Positions 20,455 through 63,961 of a stretch of 64,000 bases of DNA are shown here, in pieces. The position numbers and the translations under genes are program-made. Within the stretch, counting starts at the first letter, position 1. Each line of letters opens with the position of its first letter. Under the pieces are notes generated by a model that worked only from the letters and a program-made list of their open reading frames with translations, was not told the DNA's origin and ran no database searches. This DNA is from Oligoflexia bacterium (GTDB lineage: Bacteria > Bdellovibrionota > UBA1018 > CAIMNF01): assembly GCA_903845155.1 (NCBI GenBank), contig CAIMWN010000018.1, positions 5,594-69,593 of the forward strand. Reading direction: 5' to 3'.

Positions 20455-20597
20455 TCTCCATTCCTTCTGAAATATTGTATCGGGCTGGACGTCCTTACTC
20501 AGTATGCCACGTCTGCAAAAAACATCCAATTTTTCGTTGGGTTCCTAAGATTTTGTGCATTGGCTTTTCTGAATGAGTGTTAGAATGGAAGGTATTA

Positions 20598-21557
20598 ATG
20601 ACGAATCGCAATCAAATGATGCTGCTCATCGCCGTCTTCGCTCTGGGTGGATATTATCTTTTCAATACACCCACGCCGAGTCCCCCTGTTGGGGTGACCG
20701 AAATTGCGCAACCGCAACCGGAAGCGCCAGAAATGACGCCAAAATTGAAATTGAATGCCGCAACTGTTAAGCAAGCGCGAGGCATTCAGTTGAGTGGGAA
20801 GTCGGCAGAAGTCAGTCAATTCCTGCCTTCTGAGGTTCCTCAAGGAAAAGTAAATCCGCGATATACTAATAAGCCGAGCGATATGACTGTTGAATTCGAA
20901 GAGATTGACGGTCAAGCGGTGGCTTTTGGTGACACCATTATCGGTAATTTAAGTAAAGACTTTACTGAGAAAAAGGGCATTACTGAAATGTTCATTCCCA
21001 AGTACTGGGACAAAGGGATTGTTCCGTATGCCATTCAGGCAACGGCGCCTCACCAAGATATGATTCAACAAGCGATCGATTATTTTAATAAAAATACTTC
21101 GATTAAATTTGTTCCCTATACAGGGCAAGACGATGCAATTGTTTTCGTAAAAGGGGAGGAGCACTGTCTCTCCTATTTGGGACGGACAGGGGGAACTCAA
21201 CCCATTTATATTTCTGGCTTGTGTGGAACTCATGAGATTCTTCATGAGCTGATGCATGCACTTGGTTTCGTCCATGAGCAATCCAGGCCAGATCGCGATC
21301 AGTATGTGGATATTTTCTGGAACCAGATTCAGGAAAAATATCAGGCACAATTTGCCATGGTTCCTGAGGTATTTATGCAAAGTTATTTCGGCTCGCCCTT
21401 TGATGCAGGTTCCATTATGATGTATAGCTCGCATGCTTTTGGAGTGAGCCCTGAGGCAGTCACTCTTAAATTAAAAAATGGACAAGAAGTGAAGCAAAGT
21501 GCCGGAGGCTTAAGTTCGAGCGACATGGAGAGAGTGAATCGGCTTTATCAAAATTAA
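20598..21557 (+). CDS. Astacin-family (M12A) zinc metalloprotease, membrane-anchored or secreted
   Basis: HELMHALGFVHEQSRPDRD (HExxHxxGxxHE) plus Met-turn SIMMYS. N-terminal signal-anchor. ATG 20598 with SD ggaagg is preferred over the GTG at 20577. Confidence 0.85.
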   Translation: MTNRNQMMLLIAVFALGGYYLFNTPTPSPPVGVTEIAQPQPEAPEMTPKLKLNAATVKQARGIQLSGKSAEVSQFLPSEVPQGKVNPRYTNKPSDMTVEFEEIDGQAVAFGDTIIGNLSKDFTEKKGITEMFIPKYWDKGIVPYAIQATAPHQDMIQQAIDYFNKNTSIKFVPYTGQDDAIVFVKGEEHCLSYLGRTGGTQPIYISGLCGTHEILHELMHALGFVHEQSRPDRDQYVDIFWNQIQEKYQAQFAMVPEVFMQSYFGSPFDAGSIMMYSSHAFGVSPEAVTLKLKNGQEVKQSAGGLSSSDMERVNRLYQN

Positions 21558-24100: not shown

Positions 24101-25561
24101 GTGCGAAATACGATAGTTTTATACTTAAACGGCATACGCTGCGAGCTGAGCGGAGACCTCGCTTTCATGACGGTGTCCGATTATCTCCGCTATCAAAAGG
24201 GCCTTACTGGTACCAAGGTAGTATGTGCTGAAGGCGACTGCGGTGCTTGCACAGTGCTCGTGTCGCGGATGGTGAATGGCAAACTTGGATCATACCAATC
24301 GATCAACTCCTGTATTAGTTTTATGTATCTGCTCGATTTGTGTCACCTCATCACGGTAGAGGGCTTAAAAAAAGAGGAGACACTTCATCCGGTTCAAAAG
24401 GCAATGCTTGATTCTAATGGCGCTCAATGCGGGTATTGCACACCTGGATTTATTTGTGCAATGGCTGGCCTGACTGAAGATGCAAAAAATGGGAAATTTA
24501 TTTTGGAAGAAAAGCGAGTTAAAAACTATTTGACTGGCAACCTTTGTCGCTGCACCGGTTACGACTCTATTATTCAAGCCGGTTGCTCGGTGAATGCTGA
24601 AGCGGCTCCTTCATTGCGCGTACTGTACCAGGATGAAGAAATTGAAAAGGATTTAAAATCACTTTCGGGCCAAACAGTGTGCCTGAAAGGCGCCCAGCAA
24701 GAGTTTTGTGCCCCGGCGACTTTATCTGAAGCGCTGACATTAAAAAGTGTAAATGTGGATCTGAAGCTCACCTCAGGAGCGACAGATCTAGGTGTACTTT
24801 CTAATAAGGGAAAATTAAAATTATTAAAAACGCTCACCCTTAATCATGTGGATGAGCTGTATTCGGTAAAAGAGGACACATCTTCACTGATGGTTGGAGC
24901 TAAAGCCTCGTTGACAGCGGTGGAAGAGGCCTGCCGAACACTTTTCCCGGCATTTTCAAACTACCTTCACATTTTTGCTTCGCCTCAAATTAAAAATGCA
25001 GGCACCCTCATTGGTAATGTGGTGAATGCATCTCCGATTGCCGACACCATTCCATTTTTAAAAGTAGCAGAAGCAGAAATAGGATTGAGTAGCGTTCGCG
25101 GAGAAAGAGTGCTCAATCTCAATCAGTTTTTTAAACCCGGCTACAAACAGCTCGATCTTTTGCCTGATGAACTCGTGACGCATGTGAAAATTCCAAAATC
25201 CCATGCAAAGTTTAAACTTTATAAAGTTTCCACGCGCAAAGACCTAGATATTTCTACCGTTACCTTTGCCGTTCGTTTTGAGTTAGTAGGTGACATCATT
25301 AAAAATATTTCTTTTGCATTCGGGGGTGTGGGGCCGAGCGTACTGCGCATGACTGAACTTGAGAAACAAGCAATTGGCAAAAAATTCGAGCCCGCACTCT
25401 TTAAGGCGCTTGCTCTAAATTTGCAGTCTATGATCACACCGCTGAGTGATGTTCGCGGAAGTGCGGACTACCGTCAACTACTGTGTCACAATCTGATGCT
25501 TAAGTTTTGTGACGAAGTGACGGCTGAGCTGGGGCTCCAATCTGCGGGGATTTCGGTATGA
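24101..25561 (+). CDS. xdhA: Xanthine dehydrogenase small subunit (2Fe-2S + FAD-binding)
   Basis: Two [2Fe-2S] cysteine clusters (CAEGDCGACTV; CGYCTPGF...CRCTGY) followed by a FAD-binding CO-dehydrogenase-flavoprotein-like domain. GTG start. ATGA overlap with xdhB. Confidence 0.9.
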   Translation: MRNTIVLYLNGIRCELSGDLAFMTVSDYLRYQKGLTGTKVVCAEGDCGACTVLVSRMVNGKLGSYQSINSCISFMYLLDLCHLITVEGLKKEETLHPVQKAMLDSNGAQCGYCTPGFICAMAGLTEDAKNGKFILEEKRVKNYLTGNLCRCTGYDSIIQAGCSVNAEAAPSLRVLYQDEEIEKDLKSLSGQTVCLKGAQQEFCAPATLSEALTLKSVNVDLKLTSGATDLGVLSNKGKLKLLKTLTLNHVDELYSVKEDTSSLMVGAKASLTAVEEACRTLFPAFSNYLHIFASPQIKNAGTLIGNVVNASPIADTIPFLKVAEAEIGLSSVRGERVLNLNQFFKPGYKQLDLLPDELVTHVKIPKSHAKFKLYKVSTRKDLDISTVTFAVRFELVGDIIKNISFAFGGVGPSVLRMTELEKQAIGKKFEPALFKALALNLQSMITPLSDVRGSADYRQLLCHNLMLKFCDEVTAELGLQSAGISV

Positions 25562-27900
25562 GTGTCGGGAATAGTATTCCTCATGATTCAGGCTTGGGTC
25601 ATGTCTGTGGCGAAAGTGTTTTTATTGATGATCGTGCTGAAACTCGTGGTGAAGTACACGTGGGCTTAGTCTGTAGTTCCATTGCGTGCGGTGATTTAAT
25701 TGAAATAGATGCAAGTGAGGCACTCAGGCATCCCGATTGTTTAGGGGTATTTACCGCCAAGGATTTCGTGCATAAAAAATGGGGAACCATTGTCCATGAC
25801 CAACCATTTTTGGTGGAAGACAAAATAAATTATATGAGTGAGCCCGTTTGCATTGTGGCTAGCCGCACACGGGATTCCATTGAAGCAATTAAACATTTAG
25901 TGAAGTTACAGGAAAAAGCGGCAGCAGGTATTTTTACCATTCAAGATGCCAGGAAAAATCAGTCTGTGATTTACCGCGCACTGAAGCCTTTTGTACAAGG
26001 AAACGTGGATCAAGCATTGAAGATGGCCCCTCATAAGCTCACCGGAACGTTTACGGTGGGTGGGCAAGAACATTTTTATATGGAATCGCAAGCGGCGGTG
26101 ATTTACCCACTTGAGAATGGGCAACTTGAAATTCATTCATCAAGCCAACATCCCAGTGAAACTCAGCGTACCGTTGCCGAGGCTTTAGGTTTATCGCTTC
26201 ATCAAGTGGTGTGTGTGGTGAAGCGTATGGGCGGGGGTTTTGGTGGCAAGGAATCTCAGGCAGGCCCTATTGCGGCTTATGCTGCATTGGTCGCTCAAAA
26301 GTTAAAGAAACCTGCTCGACTCATTCTCACTAAAGATGAAGACATGAAAATTACGGGAAAAAGACACCCTTTTCAGAATGAGTACGAAGTCGCTTTCGAC
26401 GATGACGGTAAAATTCTAGGAGTGAAGGTACTACTTCAATCAGACGGAGGAGCGTACGCGGATCTTTCTGCCTCTATTCTCGATCGGGCGATGTTTCACT
26501 TCGATGGAGTCTATTATTTAGAGAACGTGCACATCGATGCTGTTTGTTATCGAACGAACAATCATTCGAATACTGCATTCAGAGGTTTTGGTGGTCCACA
26601 GGGAAACATGACCATGGAAAGCATTATCGAAGATATCGCACATTTTTTGAAAAAGGATGCAGCCGTCGTGCGACTTCGAAACCTTTATCAAGGTCCGAAC
26701 GTCAAAACCCCGTACGGACAAAATCTTGAAAACAATATGCTGCCTGAGATTTTTAGACAACTCATCACTACTTCGGAGTATGAAAAGCGCCGAGTGGAGA
26801 TTGATAAGGAAAATCTAAAAAAAACAGGGGTGCTTCGCGGGATTTCCATCACCGGCACAAAGTTTGGAATAGCCTTTACTGCGCGTTTCCTTAATCAAGG
26901 GAATGCCCTCGTCAATTTGCATTTGGATGGGACTGTACAGGTGAGCACTGGTGCGACTGAAATGGGCCAAGGCGTGAACACTAAGATTCAGCAAATCGTA
27001 GCGCATGGTTTTGGGATTGAATCCGGATCAGTTCAAGTGATGACGACTTCTACAGAGAAAAATCATAATACCTCGCCTACGGCAGCATCCAGTGGTTCTG
27101 ATATTAATGGGGCGGCAGCGCTGAAAGCGGTAAACAAGATTAAGGTGAATTTAATAGGGCTTGCTCGTAAGAAATTCGCCGGTGAAGTGAGTTCCGCATT
27201 GAAAGAGTATGAGTTAGAGCAGAACGCGGAAACCGTGCCTTTAGATCCGAATTTTATCTTTCAACATGGTAAAGTAGTGGAACTTTCCACCAAAAAGGAA
27301 ATCTCTTTAAAAGAGCTCATTAGCATCGCTTATCAAAATCGTGTTTCTTTAGGTGCCTATGCACATTTTAAAACTGGTGGCCTTGGGTTTGATAAAGAGA
27401 AAGTGGAAGGCAAAGCGTTCAATTATTTTACGCAAGGAATGGCCGTGAGCGAAGTTTCTGTTGATGAATATACCGGTGAAGTGAAGGTTTTACGTGTAGA
27501 TCTATTGATGGACCTGGGTCGTTCTATTAATCCCGGTATTGATCGCGGGCAAGTGGCGGGAGGCTTTGTGCAAGGGATGGGGTGGGTCACTACTGAAAAT
27601 CTTTTTTACGATGAAAGACGAAATCTTATTTCTCATTCTCCGACTACTTATAAAATCCCAAATATTCAAGATACGCCACGCGAATTTAATATTCATTTTA
27701 TTGAAAACCTAAATAACGACTGTAATGTGTACGGTTCAAAAGCCGTGGGGGAGCCACCACTCTTGTTGGGGTCAAGTGTGTGGACAGCCGTAAAACATGC
27801 GCTCAGTTATCGGTCGAAAAGCAACATGGTAAACCTCACATCTCCTGCGACGGGCGAAGTGGTGTTAATGGAATTGACTCGCTTAAAGAGGAGCCCTTGA
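25558..27900 (+). CDS. xdhB: Xanthine dehydrogenase molybdopterin-binding large subunit
   Basis: 780 aa; aldehyde-oxidase/xanthine-dehydrogenase a/b hammerhead and MoCo-binding blocks (GGGFGGKE, GQGxxTK). Confidence 0.9.
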   Translation: MSVGNSIPHDSGLGHVCGESVFIDDRAETRGEVHVGLVCSSIACGDLIEIDASEALRHPDCLGVFTAKDFVHKKWGTIVHDQPFLVEDKINYMSEPVCIVASRTRDSIEAIKHLVKLQEKAAAGIFTIQDARKNQSVIYRALKPFVQGNVDQALKMAPHKLTGTFTVGGQEHFYMESQAAVIYPLENGQLEIHSSSQHPSETQRTVAEALGLSLHQVVCVVKRMGGGFGGKESQAGPIAAYAALVAQKLKKPARLILTKDEDMKITGKRHPFQNEYEVAFDDDGKILGVKVLLQSDGGAYADLSASILDRAMFHFDGVYYLENVHIDAVCYRTNNHSNTAFRGFGGPQGNMTMESIIEDIAHFLKKDAAVVRLRNLYQGPNVKTPYGQNLENNMLPEIFRQLITTSEYEKRRVEIDKENLKKTGVLRGISITGTKFGIAFTARFLNQGNALVNLHLDGTVQVSTGATEMGQGVNTKIQQIVAHGFGIESGSVQVMTTSTEKNHNTSPTAASSGSDINGAAALKAVNKIKVNLIGLARKKFAGEVSSALKEYELEQNAETVPLDPNFIFQHGKVVELSTKKEISLKELISIAYQNRVSLGAYAHFKTGGLGFDKEKVEGKAFNYFTQGMAVSEVSVDEYTGEVKVLRVDLLMDLGRSINPGIDRGQVAGGFVQGMGWVTTENLFYDERRNLISHSPTTYKIPNIQDTPREFNIHFIENLNNDCNVYGSKAVGEPPLLLGSSVWTAVKHALSYRSKSNMVNLTSPATGEVVLMELTRLKRSP

Positions 27901-27902
27901 GC

Positions 27903-28703
27903 ATGGAACAGAGTCTCCCTCAGTTTTGCGAGCGCTTTTTAGAGCTTTATCAAAATAAAACTCCGATGGTAGTCGTGACCCTAACCGATATGGTAGGACA
28001 TGCACCGCAAGATGTAGGCGCAAGAATGATCGTCGGAACGGACGAAATTTATTTCGGGACCGTGGGCGGCGGTAAGCTTGAAAAGCGTTGTATTGATTTA
28101 TCACGCGAGTTTCTAACATCAAAAATTCCAATTAAAAATCAGTCCCATCAATGGAACCTGCCACGCGATATTGGAATGACTTGCGGTGGAGAGGTGACCC
28201 TTTATTTTGAAACTTATAAACCTGAAGAGACGTGGAAGATTGCAATCTTTGGTGCGGGACATATTTCTCAGGAGTTAGTCCCCATATTGCTAAAATTAAA
28301 TTGTGAACTAACCGTCGTTGATCCGAGGCCAGAGTGGTTAAGTCGATTGCCCCATTCTCCTCGTTTGAAGAAGATTCAAGAAGAGAATATGCCGCTAGTG
28401 CTAGAGACTTTAGATTCGAACACTTTTGTTGCCATCGTGACCATGGGGCACGCGACCGACTACCCATTGGTGAAGCTAGCACTTGAAAAACATCATTTTC
28501 CCTATCTAGGAGTCATTGGAAGTAAAGTGAAGAGAATTAAAATGAACGCAGATTTGATAGCGAGCGGAATTCCTGAAAAGCTAGCTAAAGAGGGATTTTA
28601 TTTACCCATGGGTGAAGATTTCGGCAGAAACACACCGGCCGAAATTGCCTTAAGTATTGTGGCGCAATTGTTGAAAACAAGAGATCAGCTCTTCAATCCG
28701 TAG
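27903..28703 (+). CDS. xdhC: XdhC-family molybdenum-cofactor insertion chaperone
   Basis: XdhC/CoxI N- and C-terminal Rossmann-like halves (VVVTLTDMVGHAPQDVGARMIV...GGG...IFGAGHISQELV). ATG 27903 with SD aagaggag is preferred to the ORF-track start at 27780, which would overlap xdhB by 120 nt. Confidence 0.8.
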   Translation: MEQSLPQFCERFLELYQNKTPMVVVTLTDMVGHAPQDVGARMIVGTDEIYFGTVGGGKLEKRCIDLSREFLTSKIPIKNQSHQWNLPRDIGMTCGGEVTLYFETYKPEETWKIAIFGAGHISQELVPILLKLNCELTVVDPRPEWLSRLPHSPRLKKIQEENMPLVLETLDSNTFVAIVTMGHATDYPLVKLALEKHHFPYLGVIGSKVKRIKMNADLIASGIPEKLAKEGFYLPMGEDFGRNTPAEIALSIVAQLLKTRDQLFNP

Positions 28704-31700
28704 ACATGCATGCGGTTGATGCCGCCGTCCGGATATACCGTTACTTTGATTTGCTTAAATTCCTGTGAAGAGTGAATTCTAAATTCTATTTTATTCCCAG
28801 CATATGCTTTCACATTGGTTTTGGGAACGAGGATGTTCCATTGATCGCCGCCTGAAAGTGTCAGACCCTGAAGACTCAACTCAAAGGGATTATTGTTTCT
28901 AAAAAATGTAAAATCAATTTCAATGCGATGAATTTGAGAAGGGCGCCCCAGTTCAACAGTTACTTCTTCGAAGTGTCCCTTCGTTCTGCTTCTTGCTGAC
29001 TCGGATCCATCAAACATATTTACCGGAGGATAAGGCGAGATCATTTGCACTGCAGGACTGTAATGTTCGTTCGTGGCACCCGTAATTTTTCCTCCATAGG
29101 CGAGGCATGCAAGATCTACCTCAGCACCTTCAGGTAAGCGATCCCAATTCTGTTGAATGGTAGTAGGTGTGGCATTGTATTTGGGTGTCAGTGGCCGCAC
29201 CGGGTGCGGAATGGGATCAGGAAAAAGAATATTCTTTGCTTGATCTAATGGCTGAAAGTTAATTTTATCTTGTTCGGGCAGTGATTCATTAAATAGGCCC
29301 ACACGCGACAAGCCCCCGTCTGGATACATGGATACGCGAATAGTTTTGTAGGTGGTGTCATCCTTTGCGAGTTGCACTTGCTTTAAAGAGTGACCTTCTA
29401 GTTTCAATTTAGGTAAGATTACTTTCCACTGGTCTGATCTAATATCTAGGCCTTCAATCGTGACGGCCTCGGGATGATTTCCTTGATGAAATTGAGTAGA
29501 GAGTGAAACAAAGTGGATTGGAGAAGGTTTCTTCAATTGAAAGGTAAGACTGTCTCGAGGGTCGTGTGCAGGTTTGTAATTATGTCTGACGCTCTCCCAG
29601 CTATCCATGATTTTCCCCTGACGGCCATACAGTTCGGGATCAAATATAGGAAGGTTCGGCGACAAAAGGTTTTCAGCTCGTGCAAAACGCTCGTTGGTGA
29701 CCTCCAGTATTTTACTTCCTACCGCTAAGTTGAAGGGAGCCAGTGGGTCGGGCGTTCCTTTGATGGTGATTGCTTCTGGCTGGTCTGGTTTAAACGCTTC
29801 AAAAATAAGCCTTTTGTAGCCTAAATTCACTATTTCTTCCTGAGGAATGCTTGAGGTGTCGAAGTCAGATTTGAAAAGGGTGGTGTCCACTCCTTGAAAA
29901 TTGAGCTCCTTTAAAATAAGTTGTGCGGCCTCTGCAATAAACAGAACGCCTTTTGTGTCTGCATTGCACAGGATAACAAAGCCGAGTCCTCGATCTGGCC
30001 CCGAAAAACATTGAACAAAGAGACCACGAAAACCATCATTTGCTCCTTGATGAATGGCGAAGCGATTTGGGCCCGCTTCAGCAATAAAAACACCTAATCC
30101 AATATTCACTCCCATGAACTTCTGACTCAAGCGATCTTGGTCACCCAGCATCTGTATCGCCGTATCGTGCGAAATAGGACCTGAGCCCTTGATTGAATGG
30201 AAACTCTCGGTGAGCTTGCTTAAAAATGAAGCCATGTCTGAGGCAGTACCCATAGCACCGGCTGCAAAAGCTGGAAACTTCTTGCGGGTGCCTTTGACGG
30301 GCTCGCCTGAATCCAAATAACCATGAGCATAGTCAATGCCGGGAATTGTATTTTGCTCAAAGCTTAAATGGTGAAGCCCCAGTTCTTTGAAAAAATCTTG
30401 GGTCATTTCTTGAATACTCTTTTGTTCTAGTGATTCCAAGAGATGCTCGAGCACCAAGAACCCTCCGCCTGAGTATTGAAACGCAGAACCCGGTTCATGA
30501 AGTACGCCCACTTTGGGATATCCGTATTTTTGGTTGCCACTGAGAAGTTCCGAAATGCGAGGCATGGGCTCGTCCGCGGGAATCCCATTCACATAGTGCA
30601 TGTTTAATGCATTATGCTTCATCAGGTTTGCAAGTGTCACTTGGTTAGCCCACTCTGGACTATTTTTGTCCAAGGATTCTAATCTAAATGAAGAAGTGGA
30701 CTGTTCAAAAACGGAATTAACAGGAGTCGAAAGCGAAATGCCATTCTTTCTAAAATACTCAAGTGCAAAGGCGCTTGCCATCGTCTTGCTTAAGGATGCA
30801 AGCTCAAACCAAGTGTGCTCACCAACTCGTTCTTTCCCTCGCTGGCGATCACCAATGCATATGTTTTGTTTCGTCGTCAACGAGGTATTCACCGTGATGG
30901 TGGCGCCATTGACTTGGTAGCGAAGAAGTAATTGATTTAACTTTTCATGAAGATTTAAAAACGGCAGTTTCTTCAGCCTCTTGAGGCTGATTTCCCATAA
31001 AGCATTTCTTGCTTGAACGAGCTCCAGTTCCTGGGTGCTTTGTAAGCGCGTATTTAAATCAGCAAGTATCTCGGCGCTCGATTTTCCTTCTGCAGAAATG
31101 AGGTACTTAAACCCAAACTTCTTCAAGTAGCGGTCGCCCAATGCACGAAGTTCGGCCTGTGTCTCGGCGCCAGCTTTTAAAACAAGTGCTTGTTCTTGAG
31201 ATGCGACTTCATCGAGAGTTTTCTTGCTTTCGCCAATATTCCCGTGAAAGCTTGCGGCATGAAGGATGTCATCTAGGGTAAAGTTTTTTATAATCGTTTC
31301 AGCCTTCACCAAATCAACCGTGAGGTCAGAAGCAAGCGGGTGGGCAAACGAAACGCTTCCGCATATAGAAAAGTATTCGTTAAAACGTTGAATGTAATCT
31401 GTGCATAGAAACTTCTCAGGATCCAGTTTAGTCACGACATTCCAAGGGTCGCTTTCATTTCTGATTGACTCGACAGTAAACGGCAGTAAGAGTTCAGTTG
31501 CGAATTCGGGAGGGTGGGAACTTGTCATGAGTTTGATCATGATTTTCATTGCGATCCCGTACCATTTTTCAGTTCTTTCATCCCATTTCACTTGAACGAT
31601 TTTCTGAGCGTTCGATAAGTCTTTCCGAATGAAGAGCATTTCCTCATGAATAATTTTCAAGAATGCATCGATGCTAAATCGCCCATGATGAATCTCGTGC

Positions 31701-33433
31701 CAAACTTCCCAACGCGAGCGCTCCGCAGTGGCGAGGTCATCCATCACTCGTACAGAAACTCCATTGATGGTTGCAGGAAGTGCAACGCAGCCACGGCCTG
31801 ATAGCCAGTCGGTAAGGTACTGGAGTGATTGAAATACATTATAGCGGATTTCTTCGCTGTCGTTATTCGCTATAAATGGTGATTCCTTCATGTCGGCTAC
31901 AATTAATGACCGAGGATAGAGTGGGTGATGAGTGTCGAGGCCCACTATGTCTTTCCCGTGTATAAAACTCATCATGTCAGCGTGGTGCTCTTTTACTAGT
32001 AAACCTTCCACCATTTTTTGAAGAGGAGCAGAATCATTTTGTTGATGAAGTTCCCATGCGCGAACCAAGGCGAGTCCAATGCGAATAAAGTCTGGGTGGG
32101 CGACCCAAAAACCACTCAAGCCGCGCTTAAGCTGTGTGATCACATCTCTCATAAAACCTTTAATCGTCATTTGAAATGAGGCGCTCAGGCGATCATCGTC
32201 GATGGAAAGAATGCCATACATGCCGCCAATCTTAATCCCACCTCTTGAGCCCACCACTTCAGTGAGAAGATCGTGTGAGGCTTTGATGCATTTAATTACA
32301 ATATTCGGATCAGCCTTTACGGGAATTCGATAGTTTGAGTCCTCTCTAAATAAGCGTGCCGTTGAAGCGAGGTAGTCATGCCAACCAAGAGATGCACCAG
32401 CGAAGTAGGGATAGAGTGCGTCCATAATCTCATTCACGCGAAAGATCGCACGCGGATTTTCTAAAACGAGGAGTAAACGGATACTGCCCAACTTGTACGC
32501 GGAATGACGATTTTTGAGGAGTTTTTCTGTCGTTTCCACCATGTGATGAATGTAAAGAGCATCTTCTTCATTTTCTAGCTTGGGCACATAGAAGGTGAGG
32601 GCGGCTTCGTTTTCCCAATGTTTAAAACAATGGAGAGCAAAATCGTATAAGTGTAAAGGGATTGGTTGCTCACGGTAAAATAAGAAGGTGCAAGGCAGCG
32701 CGAGACCCGGAAAGCGTTTAATAGGAAGGGTGAGCCGTTCGCTTTCAATTTTGTAGGTTTTGTTATTTTTTGAGTCTGTAAAGCTTAAGCTCTGGTCGTA
32801 ACAGGCGTTCAGATTCATTGCTGCCGCGATTAAATCCTGTCGGATAGGCGTTTTTGAATCTTCATCATCCGCGCCCCATTTAGGAAGATCAGTGCTAGTT
32901 TCAAGCAATTCAGAAATAATGCTCGGTTCATCTTTGAGTTTACGATGAAAGGCATTCATCGCGTTGATACAGAGTTTTGCGTTATCGGGTGGACCAAAGA
33001 GAGTAACGTGATTTCCGCTCAAGTGCTTCGGAATAGGCGCAATGGGTTTGCCATAACCGCGTGTGCAGTAGTGTTCGTTTTTCGGCCCAAGCACAGTGCG
33101 GCCGTTTCCGTCTTCGTGGCTGATGACGGTTTCATATCGTGGATCCAGTAAATCAATTCCGAGTGTGCGATTGAGTTCGCTGCAAGCGCGCGTTCGTTGA
33201 TCAATAAATTGTCGATCTTGAGTGCGTTGAGAGAGTGTTGCAGCCAATTGCCCTTTCACGCCATCGTAAAGTTCGCATAAAAACTGAAGCGAAGATTGGG
33301 TCTCAAGGCCTCCACCTTTGCCTACTTCGCGAAGTTCAGGAATATTCGTAACGGGCTGGCTCTCAGCCAATAACTTGGAAAGAAGGGCCGGAGTAATATA
33401 ATCTTGATAATAGGGGATCTCTCGCTGTTTCAT
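28685..33433 (-). CDS. Four-module purine-catabolism fusion protein: malate-synthase-like / OHCU decarboxylase / serine beta-lactamase-fold hydrolase / allantoicase (two repeats)
   Basis: Uninterrupted 1582-codon ORF. aa 1-640 match malate synthase A blocks (VTLFGPPDNAKLCINAMNA; IRLLLVLENPRAIFRVNEIMDALYPYFAGASLGWHDY; FWVAHPDF). aa 650-825 match OHCU decarboxylase (SFHGNIGE; KKFGFKYLISAEGKSSAEILADLNTRL). aa 840-1180 carry SxxK (ASLSK), YxN (HYVNG) and HxG (IHQGANDG) of the beta-lactamase/PBP fold. aa 1200-1582 carry two allantoicase repeats (MDSWESVRH; GSESARSR) each ending YPDGG...R. ATGA-coupled to hiuH upstream. Confidence 0.8.
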   Translation of the reverse strand: MKQREIPYYQDYITPALLSKLLAESQPVTNIPELREVGKGGGLETQSSLQFLCELYDGVKGQLAATLSQRTQDRQFIDQRTRACSELNRTLGIDLLDPRYETVISHEDGNGRTVLGPKNEHYCTRGYGKPIAPIPKHLSGNHVTLFGPPDNAKLCINAMNAFHRKLKDEPSIISELLETSTDLPKWGADDEDSKTPIRQDLIAAAMNLNACYDQSLSFTDSKNNKTYKIESERLTLPIKRFPGLALPCTFLFYREQPIPLHLYDFALHCFKHWENEAALTFYVPKLENEEDALYIHHMVETTEKLLKNRHSAYKLGSIRLLLVLENPRAIFRVNEIMDALYPYFAGASLGWHDYLASTARLFREDSNYRIPVKADPNIVIKCIKASHDLLTEVVGSRGGIKIGGMYGILSIDDDRLSASFQMTIKGFMRDVITQLKRGLSGFWVAHPDFIRIGLALVRAWELHQQNDSAPLQKMVEGLLVKEHHADMMSFIHGKDIVGLDTHHPLYPRSLIVADMKESPFIANNDSEEIRYNVFQSLQYLTDWLSGRGCVALPATINGVSVRVMDDLATAERSRWEVWHEIHHGRFSIDAFLKIIHEEMLFIRKDLSNAQKIVQVKWDERTEKWYGIAMKIMIKLMTSSHPPEFATELLLPFTVESIRNESDPWNVVTKLDPEKFLCTDYIQRFNEYFSICGSVSFAHPLASDLTVDLVKAETIIKNFTLDDILHAASFHGNIGESKKTLDEVASQEQALVLKAGAETQAELRALGDRYLKKFGFKYLISAEGKSSAEILADLNTRLQSTQELELVQARNALWEISLKRLKKLPFLNLHEKLNQLLLRYQVNGATITVNTSLTTKQNICIGDRQRGKERVGEHTWFELASLSKTMASAFALEYFRKNGISLSTPVNSVFEQSTSSFRLESLDKNSPEWANQVTLANLMKHNALNMHYVNGIPADEPMPRISELLSGNQKYGYPKVGVLHEPGSAFQYSGGGFLVLEHLLESLEQKSIQEMTQDFFKELGLHHLSFEQNTIPGIDYAHGYLDSGEPVKGTRKKFPAFAAGAMGTASDMASFLSKLTESFHSIKGSGPISHDTAIQMLGDQDRLSQKFMGVNIGLGVFIAEAGPNRFAIHQGANDGFRGLFVQCFSGPDRGLGFVILCNADTKGVLFIAEAAQLILKELNFQGVDTTLFKSDFDTSSIPQEEIVNLGYKRLIFEAFKPDQPEAITIKGTPDPLAPFNLAVGSKILEVTNERFARAENLLSPNLPIFDPELYGRQGKIMDSWESVRHNYKPAHDPRDSLTFQLKKPSPIHFVSLSTQFHQGNHPEAVTIEGLDIRSDQWKVILPKLKLEGHSLKQVQLAKDDTTYKTIRVSMYPDGGLSRVGLFNESLPEQDKINFQPLDQAKNILFPDPIPHPVRPLTPKYNATPTTIQQNWDRLPEGAEVDLACLAYGGKITGATNEHYSPAVQMISPYPPVNMFDGSESARSRTKGHFEEVTVELGRPSQIHRIEIDFTFFRNNNPFELSLQGLTLSGGDQWNILVPKTNVKAYAGNKIEFRIHSSQEFKQIKVTVYPDGGINRMHVYGLKS

Positions 33434-33753
33434 GTGCCTCGATAGGTGGAGTATCCAAACGGGTTCAGTAAAAGTGGAACGTGATACTTTCGTTGAGTGT
33501 TTTCTACTTTAAAGATAACGGGTATGTCTTGGAAGAAGCATTCGGTAGATTTATTTTTAAAATAGTTTTCAATCTCAAAAATGATTTGATAAATCCCAAC
33601 ATTCTTTTCGATATCAAAGGAAAATCGGCCGTCCGCATTGGTCGTTCCCGCAGCGAGAGTGGTCCATTGGCCGCCATTTTTGATGAGCAACTTCACGGTG
33701 ACTCCAGAGGCAGCGGTTCCGAGACTCGTATCTAAAATATGAGTGCTGATCAT
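33430..33753 (-). CDS. hiuH: 5-hydroxyisourate hydrolase (transthyretin-like)
   Basis: 107 aa. N-terminal STHILDTSLGTAASGV and C-terminal ...YRGT (HIUase signature is YRGS). Confidence 0.8.
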   Translation of the reverse strand: MISTHILDTSLGTAASGVTVKLLIKNGGQWTTLAAGTTNADGRFSFDIEKNVGIYQIIFEIENYFKNKSTECFFQDIPVIFKVENTQRKYHVPLLLNPFGYSTYRGT

Positions 33754-33756
33754 TTC

Positions 33757-35366
33757 TTACTCCTTCTTAAACGAAAAATCTAAATTAATGGTTTCATTCT
33801 CTTTGACGGAAACTTTTTTAGACTGATTGCCAAATACTTCATGCCACGCTTCAAGGGTGTATTCACCTACGGGGATGTTCTTGATGATGAACTCTCCGGC
33901 ATCATTGGTCACGCTGTAAAAGGGATGATCCATTACTGCGATCGATGCACTCATCCAAGGATGTACGCTACATTTCGTCTGTACAAAAATCTCAGGGTGA
34001 TTGAAAATCTTGGTGACCCGATCATCTTTGCTTGGCATCGCAACATTGAAATTCTCATTCTGACTGGTGATTGATTTCACATTGTGAAATGTCGCATCGC
34101 TGTTGATGAAATCCACCTTTTGCCCCACACGTACGGCAATGACTCGAGGTTCATATTGGCAATTTTTTTGATCCAGAATTGCCGCTACGGCAGGCACGTC
34201 ATGATATTCTTTGCCTTCAAGGCCCTTCGAGATTCGGACAAGGACGTTTTTTAGTTTTCCATTGTTGATCATGATGTCGTTGGCGTAAGTGTCGCTTTTA
34301 TTTTGTTGTGCACAAATGAGTGGAAGTTGAAGTTTCTCACCGTGAAGTGCGGGACCATTAAACAGAGCTAATCCTTTAATGGTGCCAGTGGGGCCATTCG
34401 CTGCAGCCGATGGTTCAGTTGCTGGTGTATTCGTTGCAGTTGCTGCAAGGGGTGCCGAGTTCTCGTGGGTAAAGAAAATCACGCCAATGATCAATGCAAC
34501 TCCCACTAAACCAAACGCTTTAGATCGAGGTGGATTCTTTAAGCGCACCACGAAGAATTCCCGAATGGCTGCTCCCGCTGCACTCATTAACAAAAGAATG
34601 ATCCAATTGTATTGGTTTCCGTAAGTGGACGGAAAATGATTGCTGAGCATGATGAAGATCACGGGAAGCGTGAAGTAGGTATTATGGGTAGAACGATTTT
34701 TTGCGTTTTTCCCCCATTCCTGATTCACGGGCTCGCCTCTTTTAGACGCTTCCACCATTTTCAATTGGCGAGGAATAATGCGTAGAAAAACGTTGGCCGT
34801 CATCCAAGTACCGAGCATGCCGCCGATATGAATATAGGCAGCTCTACCGCTGAGTGTATGGCAGAGAAAATATGCCATCCCGCCAAACCAAAGGAGGGTG
34901 AGGGCGTGCGCAAGAACCGGAGTGGTTTTTGAAAATTTGGATTCCCATAAAAAATCATAAAAGAGCCAAGAACCCACCAGTGAGATGACACTCAGACCAA
35001 CCGCCTGAAAAAACGTAATGTGAGAGAGACGGAAGCGTCGAGAAGAAAAGTGCCACTTCCGGCGTAGAAAATCATGCAGATCAAAAAAATTCCGCTGAGC
35101 CAGGTCCAGTATGACTCCCATTTGAACCAATGGAGTGATTCAGGAACTTTGGTAGGGCCCATGAGAAGTTTCTCTACGTGGTAAAATCCACCACCATGAA
35201 CCATCCACAACTCACCCACATGTCCGTCTTTTTTTGATAGCTCATTGAACTCAATGGTGCGATCCAGCCACATGAAAAAGATGGAAGTTCCAATCCACGT
35301 AATGGCGACGGTAATATGAAGCCAGCGTCCTAGTAAAAGTAGCCAATCAAATAACTCTTGATCCAC
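33757..35366 (-). CDS. puuD: PuuD-like integral-membrane urate oxidase with C-terminal cupredoxin (type-1 copper) domain; apparent +1 frameshift in an A6/T6 run
   Basis: The N-terminal 124-aa ORF (GTG 35366, SD gagggg) reads WLHITVAITWIGTSIFFMWLD...GELWMVHGGGFYH...LHWFKWESYWTWLSG, as recalled for the Urate_ox_N/PuuD family. The membrane domain continues in another frame (ORF 33757-35130) after the run at 35009-35014. One extra base joins ...SVSLTLRFF|QAVGLSVISL... seamlessly. The C-terminus has His-x37-Cys-x2-His-x2-Met (FHNV...CSVHPWM), an amicyanin-like copper site, with no CxxCH. Confidence 0.5.
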
Positions 35367-35433: not shown

Positions 35434-36753
35434 ATGCCCGGGCAAAATTACCGCTTCTTTCTCGCTAGTATTTTAAATCCAAAAAACGACACCAAGTGCG
35501 ATTATTTTGCGCATGGGATGTTGGTCGTTTGCGATCAGGGTAAACAGAGCTTCATTGAGGCCGTTCTCCCGTTCAATAAGGGCATGAAAAAATACTCAAG
35601 ACTCATGACCACCGCCAATACCACTGATTTTGGGAGTGCGGTGATCATGCCCGGATTCTTTGATATGCACTTTCATTGGGTGCAAGATGATGTTCGCACG
35701 CAACCCAAGGACTCTCTGCTTGAGTGGCTTGAAAAGTATACCTTTCCCGCTGAAATGAAATTTGCAGATCCAAAATATGCTGCAAGTGAGGCCAAGATTT
35801 TTTTCAAACGCTTGAGTCGAGTTGGCACATTGGGTGGCGCTTGTTATAGTTCTATTCACGGTCCGGCGCTGGAGTGCGCGATGAGTGAAGTGAAGGGGGA
35901 TTTCGTCATTGGGAATGTGCTGATGGATCAGTTTTCTCCGCCTGAGCTTACTCAGACGGAGGCTGAGGCAATTGCGCTCACCAAGAAGATGATTCGAAAG
36001 TTTGGGAGGAGATTTGCGTTTACCCCTCGCTTTGCAATCAGCACCTCGCCAGCGCTGATGAAAAAAGGAAGTAAGCTTGCCGACCAAGCTCATTGTTTTA
36101 AACAAAGTCACTTGTCAGAAAATCCGGCAGAAATTGAATTTGTTTTGAAACTCTATAAAAAGTTACCGGGTTACAAAAAGTGTTCCTCTTATACAGATAT
36201 ATACAAAAAGACAGGAATGCTCGGCAAGCGTTCACTGATGGGGCATGGTATTCATCTTTCCAGTGCAGAATTAAAAATGCTCCATGAAACAAAAACCACG
36301 CTCATTCATTGTCCAACCTCGAACGCGCCGATTCGAGAAAAGGGTCTTGGTTCTGGGCTTTTTGATTTCAAACGGGTTGAAAGAGCGAAAGTGCGTTGGG
36401 CACTTGGTTCCGATATTGGTGGCGGCCCCTTTTTATCGATGTTTGATGTGATGAGAAGTTTTGTGATTCAAAATAAGCGAGCCAAGGTGAAAGGTGCCAC
36501 TTTTGTAAAGGCGTTGTACCGTTCCACGCTCTCGGGTGCCGAGGTTTTTGGAATTGCTGCAAAGACTGGAAATTTAAATCGGAAGAAGGAAGTAAATTTT
36601 ATCGTCGTGCCGTTGAATGCTTCAAAGCCCCCCCATTCCGCGGAGGATGCATTGAAGCGCATTATCAATGCCCCAAAGGCGAAGCGAGAGTTGTTTGATC
36701 AGCTGCCGAGCGTAGTTTACTACCGCGGCAAACCTATCGTGAATCAAGCGTAG
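35434..36753 (+). CDS. guaD: Guanine deaminase
   Basis: Collinear with E. coli GuaD: PGFFDMHFHWVQ, SLLEWLEKYTFPAE, FTPRFAISTS, HLSENPAEIEFV, HCPTSN, LGSDIGGG. Confidence 0.85.
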   Translation: MPGQNYRFFLASILNPKNDTKCDYFAHGMLVVCDQGKQSFIEAVLPFNKGMKKYSRLMTTANTTDFGSAVIMPGFFDMHFHWVQDDVRTQPKDSLLEWLEKYTFPAEMKFADPKYAASEAKIFFKRLSRVGTLGGACYSSIHGPALECAMSEVKGDFVIGNVLMDQFSPPELTQTEAEAIALTKKMIRKFGRRFAFTPRFAISTSPALMKKGSKLADQAHCFKQSHLSENPAEIEFVLKLYKKLPGYKKCSSYTDIYKKTGMLGKRSLMGHGIHLSSAELKMLHETKTTLIHCPTSNAPIREKGLGSGLFDFKRVERAKVRWALGSDIGGGPFLSMFDVMRSFVIQNKRAKVKGATFVKALYRSTLSGAEVFGIAAKTGNLNRKKEVNFIVVPLNASKPPHSAEDALKRIINAPKAKRELFDQLPSVVYYRGKPIVNQA

Positions 36754-40872: not shown

Positions 40873-41718
40873 ATGATCCAAATTCCTAGTATTCCTACGA
40901 AAAACGAGCTAAACTGCGCTCCAATGAACGCCATGAATCAAATTCAACGGGTTTTGCAGAAAACCTTACTTGAGCTCCGGAGAAAGAATCCGCAATACTC
41001 AGGTCGTGCGCTTGCAAAAAAAATTGGGGTGAGTCCGGGGGCTCTCAGTGAAATCCTCAATGGAACCCGAGTAGTTTCAAGAAAAATGGCGGTGAAGATT
41101 TGTGATCGCCTTCTCCTGGACCCCATGGATAAAGCGATAGTCCTCAAATCATTTTCTGAAAAAAGAGTCACGTCGACCGAAAGTGAGGATGCTACCCACT
41201 ATTTAAAGCTCTCATCTGATCAATTTAAACTCATGAGCGAGTGGTATTATTTTGGAATTTTGGCATTCATGAAAACCGCTCATTTTAAATCAGACGTAGA
41301 TGTGGTGGCCGAGCGTCTAGGGCTTACTCGCGCGCAGGTAAATCAGGCACTCGAAAGAATGATTCGGTTAAATGTGATTCAAGTCGAAAAAGATGGAACG
41401 TGGGTGAGAGGGGAGGCCGGCCATCGCACGAGTGACGACATTGTGGATCTATCGGTGGTGAAAAGCCACTTAGAGACGCTGGAGCTGGCCAAAACGGCGC
41501 TTCAAGAACTTAAGATTGACGAGCGCGATTTCACAGCACTCACCCTGCCGCTCGACTATGAAGATCTTCCCGAAGCTAAAAAAATGATTCGAAAATTTCA
41601 AAATGAGTTCGCGGAGAAGTTTTTAAAAGGAAAAAAACCAAAAGAAGTTTTTAGAATAGCAGTTCAAGTCTTCCCGCTCAGTAAACGAGGGATGAAGGAT
41701 ATTTCAAAAAAAGGATAA
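40873..41718 (+). CDS. Member of a paralogous family (TIGR02147-like), copy 2
   Basis: Paralogue of 5279-6184 (KNPQYSGRALAKKIGVSPGALSEILNG; SEWYYFGILAFM; ERDFTALTLPLD). Confidence 0.6.
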   Translation: MIQIPSIPTKNELNCAPMNAMNQIQRVLQKTLLELRRKNPQYSGRALAKKIGVSPGALSEILNGTRVVSRKMAVKICDRLLLDPMDKAIVLKSFSEKRVTSTESEDATHYLKLSSDQFKLMSEWYYFGILAFMKTAHFKSDVDVVAERLGLTRAQVNQALERMIRLNVIQVEKDGTWVRGEAGHRTSDDIVDLSVVKSHLETLELAKTALQELKIDERDFTALTLPLDYEDLPEAKKMIRKFQNEFAEKFLKGKKPKEVFRIAVQVFPLSKRGMKDISKKG

Positions 41719-56879: not shown

Positions 56880-57674
56880 CTATTGATAAATCCACTTCTT
56901 AAAATAAGGAAGATAAACGGTCGCTACTTGTTTGGAATTTATTTTAGTAGAGTGGAGTGCGATCAGCGAGAGTGTGTCGCCCGTTCTTAGGAAGACGGGG
57001 CTACCCGAATCCCCAATCGCCGAGTACGCATCTCTGATGTAGATCTCTCTTTGGTCTTTTTGTTCGTAAAAAACCTTGGTCCAAATGCGTTTGTTTTCTT
57101 CGCCTCTCAGGCCAAAGCCCACGCGTTCTAAAGGTTGGCCCATCACGAAGTGAAATTCCTGGTCGTCGGAGAGTTCAGGAATGGAGACAAAACGGTCCAC
57201 GGTTGAATCTTCTTTGAGCTCGAAAACCGCCAAGTCTGAGTCACTGAACGAATGAGTGGGATTATATTTGGGGTGAACGCGGATGCTATTTTGATCAACC
57301 TTAAAAAAAGTAAGATTTGAATCGCGGAGAGAGTTTCCGATCAGCACTTCGTTTTGGTCCGACTTCGCGATGCAGTGTGCAGCGGTGATTCCGAGGCGCT
57401 TTGAAAGCATCACGGCCGAGCAAATATAAGTGTTTTTCCCGCGATAGGTTTTCAGGATCACGGCTGCTTGAAATTCGCTCCAATTCGTCGGCGTTTCAGG
57501 CATTTTTGCTAGATTGCTTGTAGAGCGTGAGTCGTGAGGAGGTGAAACGCGAGCAGGGGCTACTTGTTTAGAAGAAATTTGTGATGAGGTGCTGCACCCA
57601 GTGAACATTAAAAAACAAAATAAGTTTAGCGGGAAATAGTTCTTCAGAATATTATTCATTAAAATTAATCTCAA
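56880..57674 (-). CDS. Trypsin-like (S1) serine protease lipoprotein
   Basis: Lipobox LMFTGC. TAAHC (His), active-site Asp in DSDLAVF region, GDSGSPVF (Ser). Confidence 0.85.
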   Translation of the reverse strand: MRLILMNNILKNYFPLNLFCFLMFTGCSTSSQISSKQVAPARVSPPHDSRSTSNLAKMPETPTNWSEFQAAVILKTYRGKNTYICSAVMLSKRLGITAAHCIAKSDQNEVLIGNSLRDSNLTFFKVDQNSIRVHPKYNPTHSFSDSDLAVFELKEDSTVDRFVSIPELSDDQEFHFVMGQPLERVGFGLRGEENKRIWTKVFYEQKDQREIYIRDAYSAIGDSGSPVFLRTGDTLSLIALHSTKINSKQVATVYLPYFKKWIYQ

Positions 57675-63419: not shown

Positions 63420-63505
63420 GTTTTTGTCAAGTATGATATTAAAACCCCTGTCCTTGGTTGTGCTTATGTAATAATATTAGAGCGTGTTGCACACAATGAC
63501 TTTCG

Positions 63506-63961
63506 TTAATGAGTCACTTTGCTGGGTTCAATGATTGGTATTTCGACATCCAAGTCAGCATCGACTTTGTTATTGATGATTTGATTTTTGTTAATGATGT
63601 TGCTAACAGAGACAGCGGTTTGGTTTACGTTCAATTGATGTGCTTGATGGACTGATGAAATTTTTTCTGCCATGAGAAATAAACCAAAAATCATGTTCAA
63701 TTCTATCACTCTTTTTCGGATGGTGTTCAGTATAGTTTTTCTGACCACCTCATTGCGGATGGCATTTAATCGTGGTGATTGATCGGTTGCGAGTTCGGGA
63801 ACACCGGCTTCAGCTTTCAGAAGCGTGGTTCCTTCTTCAAGGTAAAGATCAATTTCATCTGATGTGAAATTGACTTGAGGAAAGTACACGAGTGGATAAC
63901 CGGTGAATAATCCAGCATTAAAAAATGCAACTTTAGCGGCTTTTATTAGAGGCCGATTCAT
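63506..63961 (-). CDS. Hypothetical protein (151 aa)
   Basis: ORF only. No domain recognised. Confidence 0.35.
   Translation of the reverse strand: MNRPLIKAAKVAFFNAGLFTGYPLVYFPQVNFTSDEIDLYLEEGTTLLKAEAGVPELATDQSPRLNAIRNEVVRKTILNTIRKRVIELNMIFGLFLMAEKISSVHQAHQLNVNQTAVSVSNIINKNQIINNKVDADLDVEIPIIEPSKVTH

Follow-up and report, generated by a model that had tools for sequence, protein, structure and literature searches.

A putative PuuD-type membrane urate oxidase with a cupredoxin module in the place of cytochrome c

The locus at 33757–35366 on the minus strand of the window, that is, of the whole 64,000-nt stretch of DNA analysed here, probably codes for a copper-type PuuD that heads, as its first enzyme, the urate-to-glyoxylate operon of an uncultured, Bdellovibrionota-like bacterium, as judged from sequence comparison and structural modelling. 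The copper domain most likely takes over the part of cytochrome c, accepting single electrons in the periplasm. The characterised PuuD, Atu2314 of Agrobacterium fabrum, is an integral-membrane cytochrome c urate oxidase; the CxxCH motif was described as strictly conserved in all PuuD sequences, and all full-length members carried cytochrome c with a distal Met (Doniselli et al. 2015, PMC4562309). The puuD copy of the window lacks an intact reading frame because of a TC insertion, and the protein described below is P0001, the single intact 535-aa product encoded by five pieces of near-identical contigs (99.9%) from four samples. The parts of the gene, with residues numbered as in P0001, are the following.

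35025..35366, minus strand: authentic 5' coding part of puuD, residues 1–114, identical to P0001
35022..35029, minus strand: (TC)4 run with the 2-nt insertion, by comparison with L001–L004 and L089
33757..35022, minus strand: authentic 3' coding part of puuD, residues 115–535
34390..34455, minus strand: Ala/Thr/Pro-rich linker, residues about 304–325, disordered in the model
33760..34389, minus strand: periplasmic C-terminal module, residues about 326–535
34159..34314, minus strand: span from Cys351 (34312–34314) to Cys402 (34159–34161)
33931..34188, minus strand: cupredoxin core, residues about 393–478
34084–34086, 33970–33972, 33961–33963 and 33952–33954, minus strand: codons of the predicted type-1 copper ligands His427, Cys465, His468 and Met471, respectively

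The membrane domain of P0001 matches positions 3–293 of the 295-position Urate_ox_N profile (PF06181) with E 3.2e-106 and 355 bits, the cut-off being 26.9. In the window the same match falls into two pieces, profile positions 3–110 (E 1e-42) in the ORF at 34992–35366 and 112–293 (E 3e-58) in the ORF at 33757–35130. In NCBIfam, with E 0.01 as the limit, P0001 matches no model of the PuuD family and is hit by amicyanin alone, weakly. The AF2 model features eight long TM helices. Lysines and arginines number 19 in the odd loops versus one in the even loops and termini, and this charge bias matches the published N-out/C-out topology of PuuD (PMC4562309), hence the C-terminal domain of the copper type is periplasmic. 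The conserved loops of the Urate_ox_N domain are on the cytoplasmic side. While the mean identity of the TM domains of the copper and cytochrome c types is 42.5%, 48 residues are invariant in 14 copper-type and 66 cytochrome c-type proteins, among them His17 and His243, situated near the periplasmic face, and His57, His79 and His227 at the cytoplasmic face.

The linker reads APLAATATNTPATEPSAAANGPTG and has pLDDT below 50 at residues 304–320 of the AF2 model. The module that follows is apparently a cupredoxin inserted into a transthyretin-like/CarboxypepD_reg beta-sandwich, the latter matching the CarboxypepD_reg and CarbopepD_reg_2 profiles. No CxxCH is found in P0001, whose cysteines are at positions 97, 168, 351, 402 and 465 only, whereas the motif H-x37-C-x2-H-x2-M is exact, from the His codon at 34084–34086 to the Met codon at 33952–33954. 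The four ligands and Asn428 are invariant in 68 full-length fusion proteins (64–99% identity), and the same ligands with the His–Asn dyad are invariant in 20 standalone homologues (34–42% identity), thus the motif is not a chance occurrence. An Asn immediately after the first His ligand is a second-sphere hallmark of cupredoxins. Cys351 and Cys402 are also invariant in these 68 and 20 sequences and are predicted to form a periplasmic disulphide.

The module is modelled confidently as a Greek-key cupredoxin beta-barrel, with pLDDT 90.7, and in the Foldseek search the target TM-scores of amicyanin and plastocyanin are about 0.7–0.8. The Cys, His and Met ligands align with those of amicyanin, and in the sequence and profile matches also with 5fc9 and the C-terminal cupredoxin of 9cck (E 2e-5 to 1e-3). 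The curated cupredoxin models are below threshold: Copper-bind (PF00127) scores 18.6 bits versus the gathering score of 21.2, and the amicyanin model TIGR02657 scores 21.7 bits versus the cut-off of 110. Hence the cupredoxin assignment is carried by the ligand pattern, by alignments to profiles and PDB entries and by the fold search rather than by Pfam, and pipelines based on Pfam miss this domain. The module is a divergent cupredoxin and not an orthologue of amicyanin or plastocyanin, and its complete type-1 ligand set predicts a blue-copper site. The first-pass annotation, made from the letters and ORF translations, had proposed a Urate_ox_N/PuuD domain, a Thr/Ala/Pro-rich linker, this very ligand motif in a protein without CxxCH, a beta-sandwich tail, and a cupredoxin replacing cytochrome c; the profile search, the model and the genome comparison below bear out this reading. 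Two outcomes had been named there as counting against it, an N-terminal domain without an HMM match to Urate_ox_N and a C-terminal domain without the Cys/His/Met ligands, and neither was obtained.

Compared with the type-1 cupredoxins amicyanin, plastocyanin and pseudoazurin (PDB 1aac, 1id2, 7pcy), the module shares the His–Asn dyad and the ligand loop, CSVHPWM here and CTPHPFM there. However, the identity is 18–26%, the amicyanin and plastocyanin models score far below their cut-offs, and two extra invariant cysteines are present. Besides, amicyanin is a free soluble carrier, whereas this cupredoxin is anchored to a membrane enzyme and sits within a second domain, the beta-sandwich. The WHE motif of the latter was weighed as another metal site; since NOMO repeats have similar strands with a His, the motif is more probably structural.

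The distribution of the two types was surveyed in the 80 best species genomes, the types being assigned by the presence of C-x2-H-x2-M or CxxCH. The copper motif without CxxCH is seen in 13 of the 80, CxxCH without the copper motif in 66, and one is incomplete. The two versions occupy the same position of PuuD and are mutually exclusive, never being found together in these genomes. The cytochrome c domain, with its CxxCH and distal Met, is absent from P0001 and from all 13 copper-type genome copies. The copper-type proteins are longer, 526–558 aa versus 389–434 aa. The copper-type PuuD is a common variant, found mainly in predatory Bdellovibrio-like bacteria, and apparently an undescribed one: our literature search for a copper or plastocyanin PuuD found no paper describing it.

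The A. fabrum protein and the copper type have much in common: the 8-TM DUF989/Urate_ox_N domain with the shared invariant residues, the N-out/C-out topology, a linker followed by a small redox domain for single electrons in the periplasm, and the purine-catabolic context. They differ in the redox domain itself, which is cytochrome c in the former and a cupredoxin plus beta-sandwich module of roughly 210 aa in the latter. The copper type would accordingly need copper delivery and not haem export and Ccm maturation.

The cupredoxin makes up just one half of a bigger periplasmic unit of two domains, which is widespread. At E <= 1e-30 the copper module occurs in 664 clusters (50% identity). The best matches are mostly proteins of about 260 aa, and all 20 of those examined stand alone and carry lipoprotein-type signal peptides; the genes around one of them (L085) gave no hint of function. 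These uncharacterised lipoproteins of the 'plastocyanin / carboxypeptidase regulatory-like domain' kind (for example P0133, P0136, NCBI HSC21682.1) retain the whole 210-aa module end to end at 34–42% identity, with the ligands, both cysteines and WHE, but have their own signal peptide and lipobox and no Urate_ox_N fusion. In P0138 the module is fused to COX2_TM and COX2 with an intact CuA motif, and in P0162, P0201 and P0242 to giant multihaem cytochromes. Both kinds of fusion, with subunit II of cytochrome oxidase and with multihaem proteins, point to ordinary electron transfer between proteins. A small carrier domain fused to a redox enzyme is also known in the caa3-type oxidases and similar enzymes, to which P0138 is a parallel; in PuuD, however, the carrier is on the electron-donating enzyme rather than on the oxidase, and it would hold copper rather than haem c.

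The genes adjacent to puuD are the following.

33430..33753, minus strand: hiuH, 5-hydroxyisourate hydrolase, 107 aa, with the C-terminal YRGT (Transthyretin/HIUase, E 1.2e-33)
28685..33433, minus strand: third gene of the operon, encoding a 1582-aa fusion protein, by profile matches
24101..28703, plus strand: xanthine dehydrogenase genes (FeS/FAD subunit, Mo subunit) and xdhC, convergent with the puuD operon
35434..36753, plus strand: guanine-deaminase-like amidohydrolase, divergent; the guanine deaminase models score 284–296 bits, below their cut-offs of 351–375

The puuD stop codon is at 33757–33759 and hiuH starts at 33753, with AAGGAG lying inside the end of puuD; hiuH is probably translationally coupled to puuD. 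The hiuH stop codon, in turn, shares the ATGA at 33430–33433 with the start codon of the third gene. The latter encodes malate-synthase-like, OHCU decarboxylase, class-C beta-lactamase-like serine hydrolase and allantoicase (two repeats) domains. Hence the first-pass description of puuD as the first gene of an operon with hiuH stands, although OHCU decarboxylase, listed there as a gene of its own, is one domain of the 1582-aa fusion. The association of PuuD with HIU hydrolase and OHCU decarboxylase is found both in the window and in the copper-type loci: the order of puuD, hiuH and the OHCU decarboxylase/allantoicase fusion is kept in 11 of the 13, while the other two have hiuH within about 3 kb, with HiuH and allantoicase encoded nearby. 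The absence of a soluble uricase, also suggested earlier, holds for the 64-kb window, where no ORF among those scanned (>= 150 aa) has a uricase or FAD urate-hydroxylase Pfam match.

The interval 33757–35366 had been read as one puuD gene. The domain assignment was correct, but the single gene was not, as two frames had been spliced together: the interval is 1610 nt, which is not divisible by 3, and the ORF list contains two ORFs in different frames with the overlap at 34992–35130. Alignment to the related contigs shows that puuD is split by a 2-nt TC insertion in the (TC)n run at the site encoding the periplasmic loop between TM2 and TM3. The run is (TC)4 in the window, reading CGTCTCTCTCAC, and (TC)3 in the related contigs, reading CGTCTCTCAC in L001–L004. 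The 5' part starts with GTG, preceded by the ribosome-binding site GAGGGG 6 nt upstream, and encodes TM helix 1, cytoplasmic loop 1 and TM helix 2; the listed ORF continues out of frame to TGA at 34992–34994. The 3' part, shifted to frame –1 with respect to the 5' one, encodes TM helices 3–8, the linker and the copper module, and its listed ORF reaches upstream to TTG at 35130. Loss of a T in a T6 run as the cause of the frameshift is ruled out by the intact-contig alignment, which places the change in the (TC) run.

The insertion is absent from all five contig pieces that encode intact P0001 (L001–L004 and L089) and is the sole indel in 13.6 kb between the window and L001. Between the window and the 619-kb scaffold of the same population there are two indels in 56.3 kb at 99.95–99.99% identity, the second one at 63449, between listed ORFs. 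The truncated 454-aa product is on record in the public NCBI/ENA collections, on a contig of 72,161 bp. Given the insertion, the window copy is a pseudogene of recent origin or a variant of this strain, unless the assembly is in error here, and the enzyme may not be made in this genome.

We give about an even chance to a genuine loss-of-function variant, produced by slipped-strand extension of (TC)3 to (TC)4 and leaving this organism with no copper urate oxidase. This agrees with the two ORFs in different frames, the absence of the insertion from near-identical contigs of four samples, the scarcity of indels in the window assembly, and the publicly recorded truncated product. However, a real variant and a consensus error are inseparable from a single assembly; moreover, any inactivation would have to be very recent, since the remaining operon genes are intact and the two parts of puuD differ from P0001 in nothing else. 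Loss of this copy is compatible with the existence of the copper-type PuuD as a family, since it concerns only the window. An assembly or consensus error, in which case the organism makes the intact 535-aa protein, is a serious possibility that falls somewhat short of even; puuD is intact in every other member of the population that was sampled, and no further degradation is seen in the operon, but dinucleotide-repeat insertions are atypical as short-read errors, and the assembly agrees with the 619-kb scaffold except for the other indel at 63449. Finally, bypass by a –1 ribosomal slip at U_UUU_UUC (35007–35013), or a (TC)n phase-variation switch, is highly improbable. The heptamer is a perfect X_XXY_YYZ in the zero frame, 12 nt ahead of the stop of the 5' ORF, and a –1 slip there would restore the downstream frame. 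We nevertheless rejected programmed frameshifting, as no stimulatory RNA structure is seen downstream (z-score –0.85) and the insertion is unique to the window assembly, so that nothing could have selected for recoding; the (TC)3/(TC)4 tract, for its part, is too short for a typical contingency locus.

For the intact copper-type PuuD we propose the following mechanism, in which urate as the substrate and the direction and partners of electron transfer are predicted. The membrane domain would oxidise urate to 5-hydroxyisourate and pass the electrons singly to the blue copper centre of the periplasmic module, which the flexible linker tethers to the eight-helix Urate_ox_N domain. From the copper centre they may move on to a terminal oxidase or to a partner protein in the periplasm, and by this route no H2O2 would be released. 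The unstable products of urate oxidation would be handled in the cytoplasm by HiuH and the fusion protein.

Two alternatives to such a relay concern the role of the copper domain and the substrate. For the cytochrome c PuuD, electron transfer to the respiratory chain was not proven, azide gave no specific inhibition, and a superoxide-scavenging role of the cytochrome c domain was raised and left open by Doniselli et al. (PMC4562309). By analogy, the copper domain could be a protective scavenger, accepting electrons of superoxide or of radicals that arise while urate is oxidised. We consider this unlikely in view of the COX2 and multihaem cytochrome fusions of the same module and of its coordinatively saturated His2CysMet site, which in cupredoxins is the classic outer-sphere electron carrier. 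It is a shade less probable still that the copper-type membrane domain has some substrate besides urate as its own, or that the catalyst lies elsewhere, the PuuD name having been transferred wrongly. The modest identity of the TM domains of the two types would allow for that, but the 48 invariant residues, the tight gene neighbourhood, which comprises hiuH, OHCU decarboxylase, allantoicase and xdh, and the absence of a second urate oxidase candidate within the 64-kb window speak for urate.

To our knowledge, PuuD is the least understood of the three kinds of urate oxidase, with no purified enzyme, cofactor inventory or structure. That a large natural clade exchanges cytochrome c for an unrelated one-electron carrier of similar function argues for a C-terminal domain that relays electrons in a generic way and against one with haem-specific catalysis. 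The copper type offers an experimental handle, as its intense blue chromophore should bleach upon reduction by urate, and the enzyme should be independent of cytochrome c maturation. In predatory bacteria the copper type would also couple the breakdown of purines with the supply of copper, and possibly with respiration, and it provides the first functional context for a widespread unnamed family of periplasmic cupredoxin lipoproteins.

A broader and more tentative reading, which we regard as possible but rather doubtful, combines these observations: the module would be a portable dedicated donor of haem-copper oxidases, the copper-type PuuD a respiratory urate dehydrogenase, and the invariant histidines a transmembrane relay. 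Electrons would then pass from a cytoplasmic urate site through the His relay, possibly comprising bis-His haem b or metal sites, to the periplasmic copper, and electrons of prey-derived purines would enter the aerobic chain of predatory Bdellovibrionota. If this is true, the exchange of cytochrome c for a cupredoxin settles the role of the C-terminal domain of PuuD. The architecture of the copper-type PuuD is already partly reflected in JGI and NCBI protein names.

The region 33757-35366 on the reverse strand was taken in the first-pass annotation for a single gene encoding a PuuD-like urate oxidase with a blue-copper cupredoxin in place of cytochrome c. While the domain reading is correct, the 1610 nucleotides hold not one reading frame but two ORFs, which overlap and differ in frame:

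34992-35366, reverse strand: puuD 5' ORF, 124 aa, GTG start with GAGGGG just before it
33757-35130, reverse strand: puuD 3' ORF, 457 aa, in the other frame, overlapping the 5' ORF

In Pfam, positions 3-110 of the Urate_ox_N profile are matched in the former (E 1e-42) and positions 112-293 in the latter (E 3e-58), thus a single domain is split between the two ORFs. With the sequence repaired by hand as query, a protein search yielded the intact ortholog P0001 (535 aa, 99% identical), present on six metagenome contigs; residue numbers below follow this protein. The DNA alignment of the window with four of these contigs shows that the frameshift is caused by a 2-nt TC insertion in the (TC) run at 35022-35029, where the window reads CGTCTCTCTCAC and all four contigs read CGTCTCTCAC. 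The site corresponds to the short periplasmic loop joining TM helices 2 and 3.

The insertion may reflect either true strain variation or an error in the consensus. The 454-aa truncated product is found in public collections (NCBI and ENA, 72,161-bp contig), hence the frameshift belongs to the deposited assembly. Only two indels are seen in 56.3 kb of the window aligned with pieces of a 619-kb scaffold from the same population (99.95-99.99% identity), the TC insertion in puuD and a 1-nt deletion in the window at 63449, the latter falling between the ORFs 62546-63352 and 63506-63961. With so low an indel rate, the balance tips slightly towards a real variant. A slippery-type heptamer U_UUU_UUC (35007-35013, reverse strand) is situated 12 nt before the stop of the truncated 5' ORF, in its zero frame, and a -1 slip at it would rejoin both halves of puuD. 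However, no stimulatory structure was found downstream of the heptamer (z-score -0.85) and the insertion is unique to the window assembly, so recoding was rejected and the heptamer is probably a coincidence. Being frameshifted, the window copy is a less than ideal representative of copper-type PuuD, that is, of the Urate_ox_N membrane domain followed by a cupredoxin-containing module.

The N-terminal region of P0001 is indeed Urate_ox_N, matching positions 3-293 of 295 in the profile (E 3.2e-106). The AlphaFold model, based on a 68-sequence alignment (pLDDT 78.6, pTM 0.72), features eight long helices, a disordered segment (residues 304-320) and a C-terminal region that is all-beta, its pLDDT being about 85-95. 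Loops 1, 3, 5 and 7 contain 19 Lys and Arg residues, whereas the N-terminus, the even loops (2, 4 and 6) and the linker after TM8 together contain one. This bias gives the N-out/C-out topology, in agreement with that published for Agrobacterium PuuD (PMC4562309), and hence the C-terminal region is periplasmic.

None of the five cysteines of P0001 is in a CxxCH motif, as had been claimed, and the ligand motif His427-x37-Cys465-x2-His468-x2-Met471 is exactly where the first-pass annotation placed it:

34084-34086, reverse strand: codon of His427
33970-33972, reverse strand: codon of Cys465
33961-33963, reverse strand: codon of His468
33952-33954, reverse strand: codon of Met471

These residues and Asn428, which follows the first His, are invariant in 68 full-length relatives (64-99% identity) and in 20 standalone homologs (34-42% identity). 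The same holds for Cys351 and Cys402, which we infer to form a disulphide. Curated HMMs give no more than a hint of a cupredoxin domain: the Pfam Copper-bind score of the C-terminal region is 18.6 bits (below the gathering score of 21.2), and that of the amicyanin model TIGR02657 is 21.7 bits (below the cut-off of 110). Among PDB sequences, direct and profile searches matched amicyanins, 5fc9 (a cupredoxin from Nitrosopumilus) and the cupredoxin at the C-terminus of 9cck, at E 2e-5 to 1e-3. In these alignments the His of HNV is in register, as is the C-x2-H-x2-M loop; the loop is CTPHPFM in amicyanin and CSVHPWM in the window protein. Foldseek with the full-length model produced cupredoxins alone among the top 50 matches listed. 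Judging by these comparisons, the predicted domain is a divergent type-1 cupredoxin, an ortholog of neither amicyanin nor plastocyanin. The Pfam CarboxypepD_reg match in the C-terminal part begins only at profile position ~13-17, and strands 326-335 and 375-380, preceding the cupredoxin, resemble the missing first strands of this fold. Hence the cupredoxin appears to be inserted into the CarboxypepD_reg beta-sandwich.

A survey of PuuD with one genome per species gave at least 598 loci, and the best 80 were classified. Thirteen are copper-type: they are 526-558 aa long, with C-x2-H-x2-M, HN[VI] 38 residues upstream of it and no CxxCH. Another 66, of 389-434 aa, are cytochrome c-type, with CxxCH present and the copper motif absent. 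The remaining PuuD is truncated; none among these best 80 of at least 598 loci has both motifs. The copper-type loci belong to Bdellovibrio, Bacteriovorax, Halobacteriovoraceae and other Bdellovibrionota, as well as to a single MAG of Acidobacteria and a single MAG bearing the label Lysobacteraceae. In the neighbor-joining tree of the TM domain, the 12 Bdellovibrionota-like copper-type sequences form one clade, and the two most divergent copper-type proteins (L016 and L017) are outside it. The only fixed difference between the types in this domain is at residue 140 (window ~34945-34947, reverse strand), where TM helix 3 is predicted to reach the cytoplasmic side: 14/14 copper-type proteins have Trp there, and at least 90% of the 66 cytochrome c-type ones have Cys. 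The mean TM-domain identity between the types is 42.5%, and 48 residues, five His among them, are invariant across both. The catalytic domain is conserved, the redox tail alone being different.

In the founding paper, a cytochrome c domain with strictly conserved CxxCH is universal in PuuD (PMC4562309). The window protein shares the defining membrane domain and would work in the same way, and the cytochrome c domain with its motif is the one universal from that paper that it lacks. Database names, 'uncharacterized membrane protein/plastocyanin' (JGI) and 'urate hydroxylase PuuD' (NCBI), hint at the architecture; a full-text literature search found no description of copper-type PuuD. As the exchange of cytochrome c and cupredoxin for one another is well known in protein evolution, this protein is of moderate interest. 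It bears on what the C-terminal domain of PuuD does, and it offers a handle for spectroscopy.

The 228-aa C-terminal region was used as query in an exhaustive search, which yielded 12,295 proteins at E <= 0.001 and 664 clusters (50% identity) at E <= 1e-30. The best matches are mostly ~260 aa long, and 20 out of 20 aligned standalone homologs have a signal peptide with a lipobox-like cysteine, followed by the module aligned over its whole length. Several are named 'plastocyanin' (JGI) and one 'carboxypeptidase regulatory-like domain-containing protein' (NCBI). Fusions with Urate_ox_N occur in many separate clusters (P0125, P0127, P0130, P0165, P0211, P0241, P0245). P0138, a protein of 502 aa from a 6.3-kb NCBI contig, carries the module with its full set of copper ligands as an N-terminal fusion to cytochrome oxidase subunit II. 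Both the TM domain and the CuA domain (CAEFCGLGHYRM) of this subunit are intact, and the protein is a copper analog of caa3-type oxidases. In P0162, P0201 and P0242 the partners are multihaem cytochrome c proteins of 1300-2100 aa. Such partners are those expected for a periplasmic electron-transfer module, and they point to a haem-copper oxidase as plausible electron acceptor.

A His2CysMet site, when coordinatively saturated, serves as a carrier rather than as a catalyst. Urate would be converted to 5-hydroxyisourate at the membrane domain, probably at the conserved cytoplasmic loops, proposed as the urate oxidation site of PuuD (PMC4562309). The electrons would arrive singly at the type-1 copper and then pass to a periplasmic partner or oxidase, without H2O2. 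The invariant His residues near both membrane faces prompt the speculation that haem b or metal sites might carry electrons across the membrane.

The proposed position of puuD at the start of an operon is borne out: hiuH starts 3 nt after the puuD stop codon, its AAGGAG is within the puuD 3' end, and its own stop overlaps the start codon of the next ORF. The OHCU decarboxylase is in the operon as well, not as a separate gene but as one domain of this ORF:

28685-33433, reverse strand: fusion ORF, 1582 aa, with a malate-synthase-like TIM barrel, OHCU decarboxylase, serine hydrolase and two allantoicase repeats

The puuD-hiuH-fusion order is seen in 11 of the 13 copper-type loci, the fusion being kept as a single gene in 11 Bdellovibrionota genomes (L005-L015); in the other two copper-type loci, HiuH and allantoicase are no more than a few kb away. 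The serine hydrolase is similar to class-C beta-lactamases and the R61 DD-peptidase, with SLSK, YSG and HQG motifs identified by eye. There is no AllB- or PuuE-type allantoinase near the fusion gene. Since the hydrolase domain stands in the place of the missing allantoinase step (hydantoin ring opening), it is a candidate for this function and may represent an allantoinase of a new kind.

Downstream of the puuD operon there are genes for xanthine dehydrogenase, together with xdhC, and upstream there is a divergent gene:

35434-36753, forward strand: guanine-deaminase-like gene

Guanine deaminase model scores of this ORF are below the cut-offs. Its length is 439 aa from the first ATG, compared with 368 aa on two related contigs and 439 aa on another (the counterpart in the related locus L001 is at 4614-5720), thus the start site is ambiguous. 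The suggested absence of soluble uricase holds for the 64-kb window, where the scanned ORFs of at least 150 aa gave no match to uricase or FAD urate hydroxylase.

The window also contains two paralogous DUF4423 proteins (5279-6184, reverse strand; 40873-41718, forward strand), one of which matches helix-turn-helix models too, and secreted hydrolases:

7363-8259: S1/P1 nuclease
20577-21557: astacin
56880-57674: trypsin-like

The pair and these hydrolases fit a predatory Bdellovibrionota genome.
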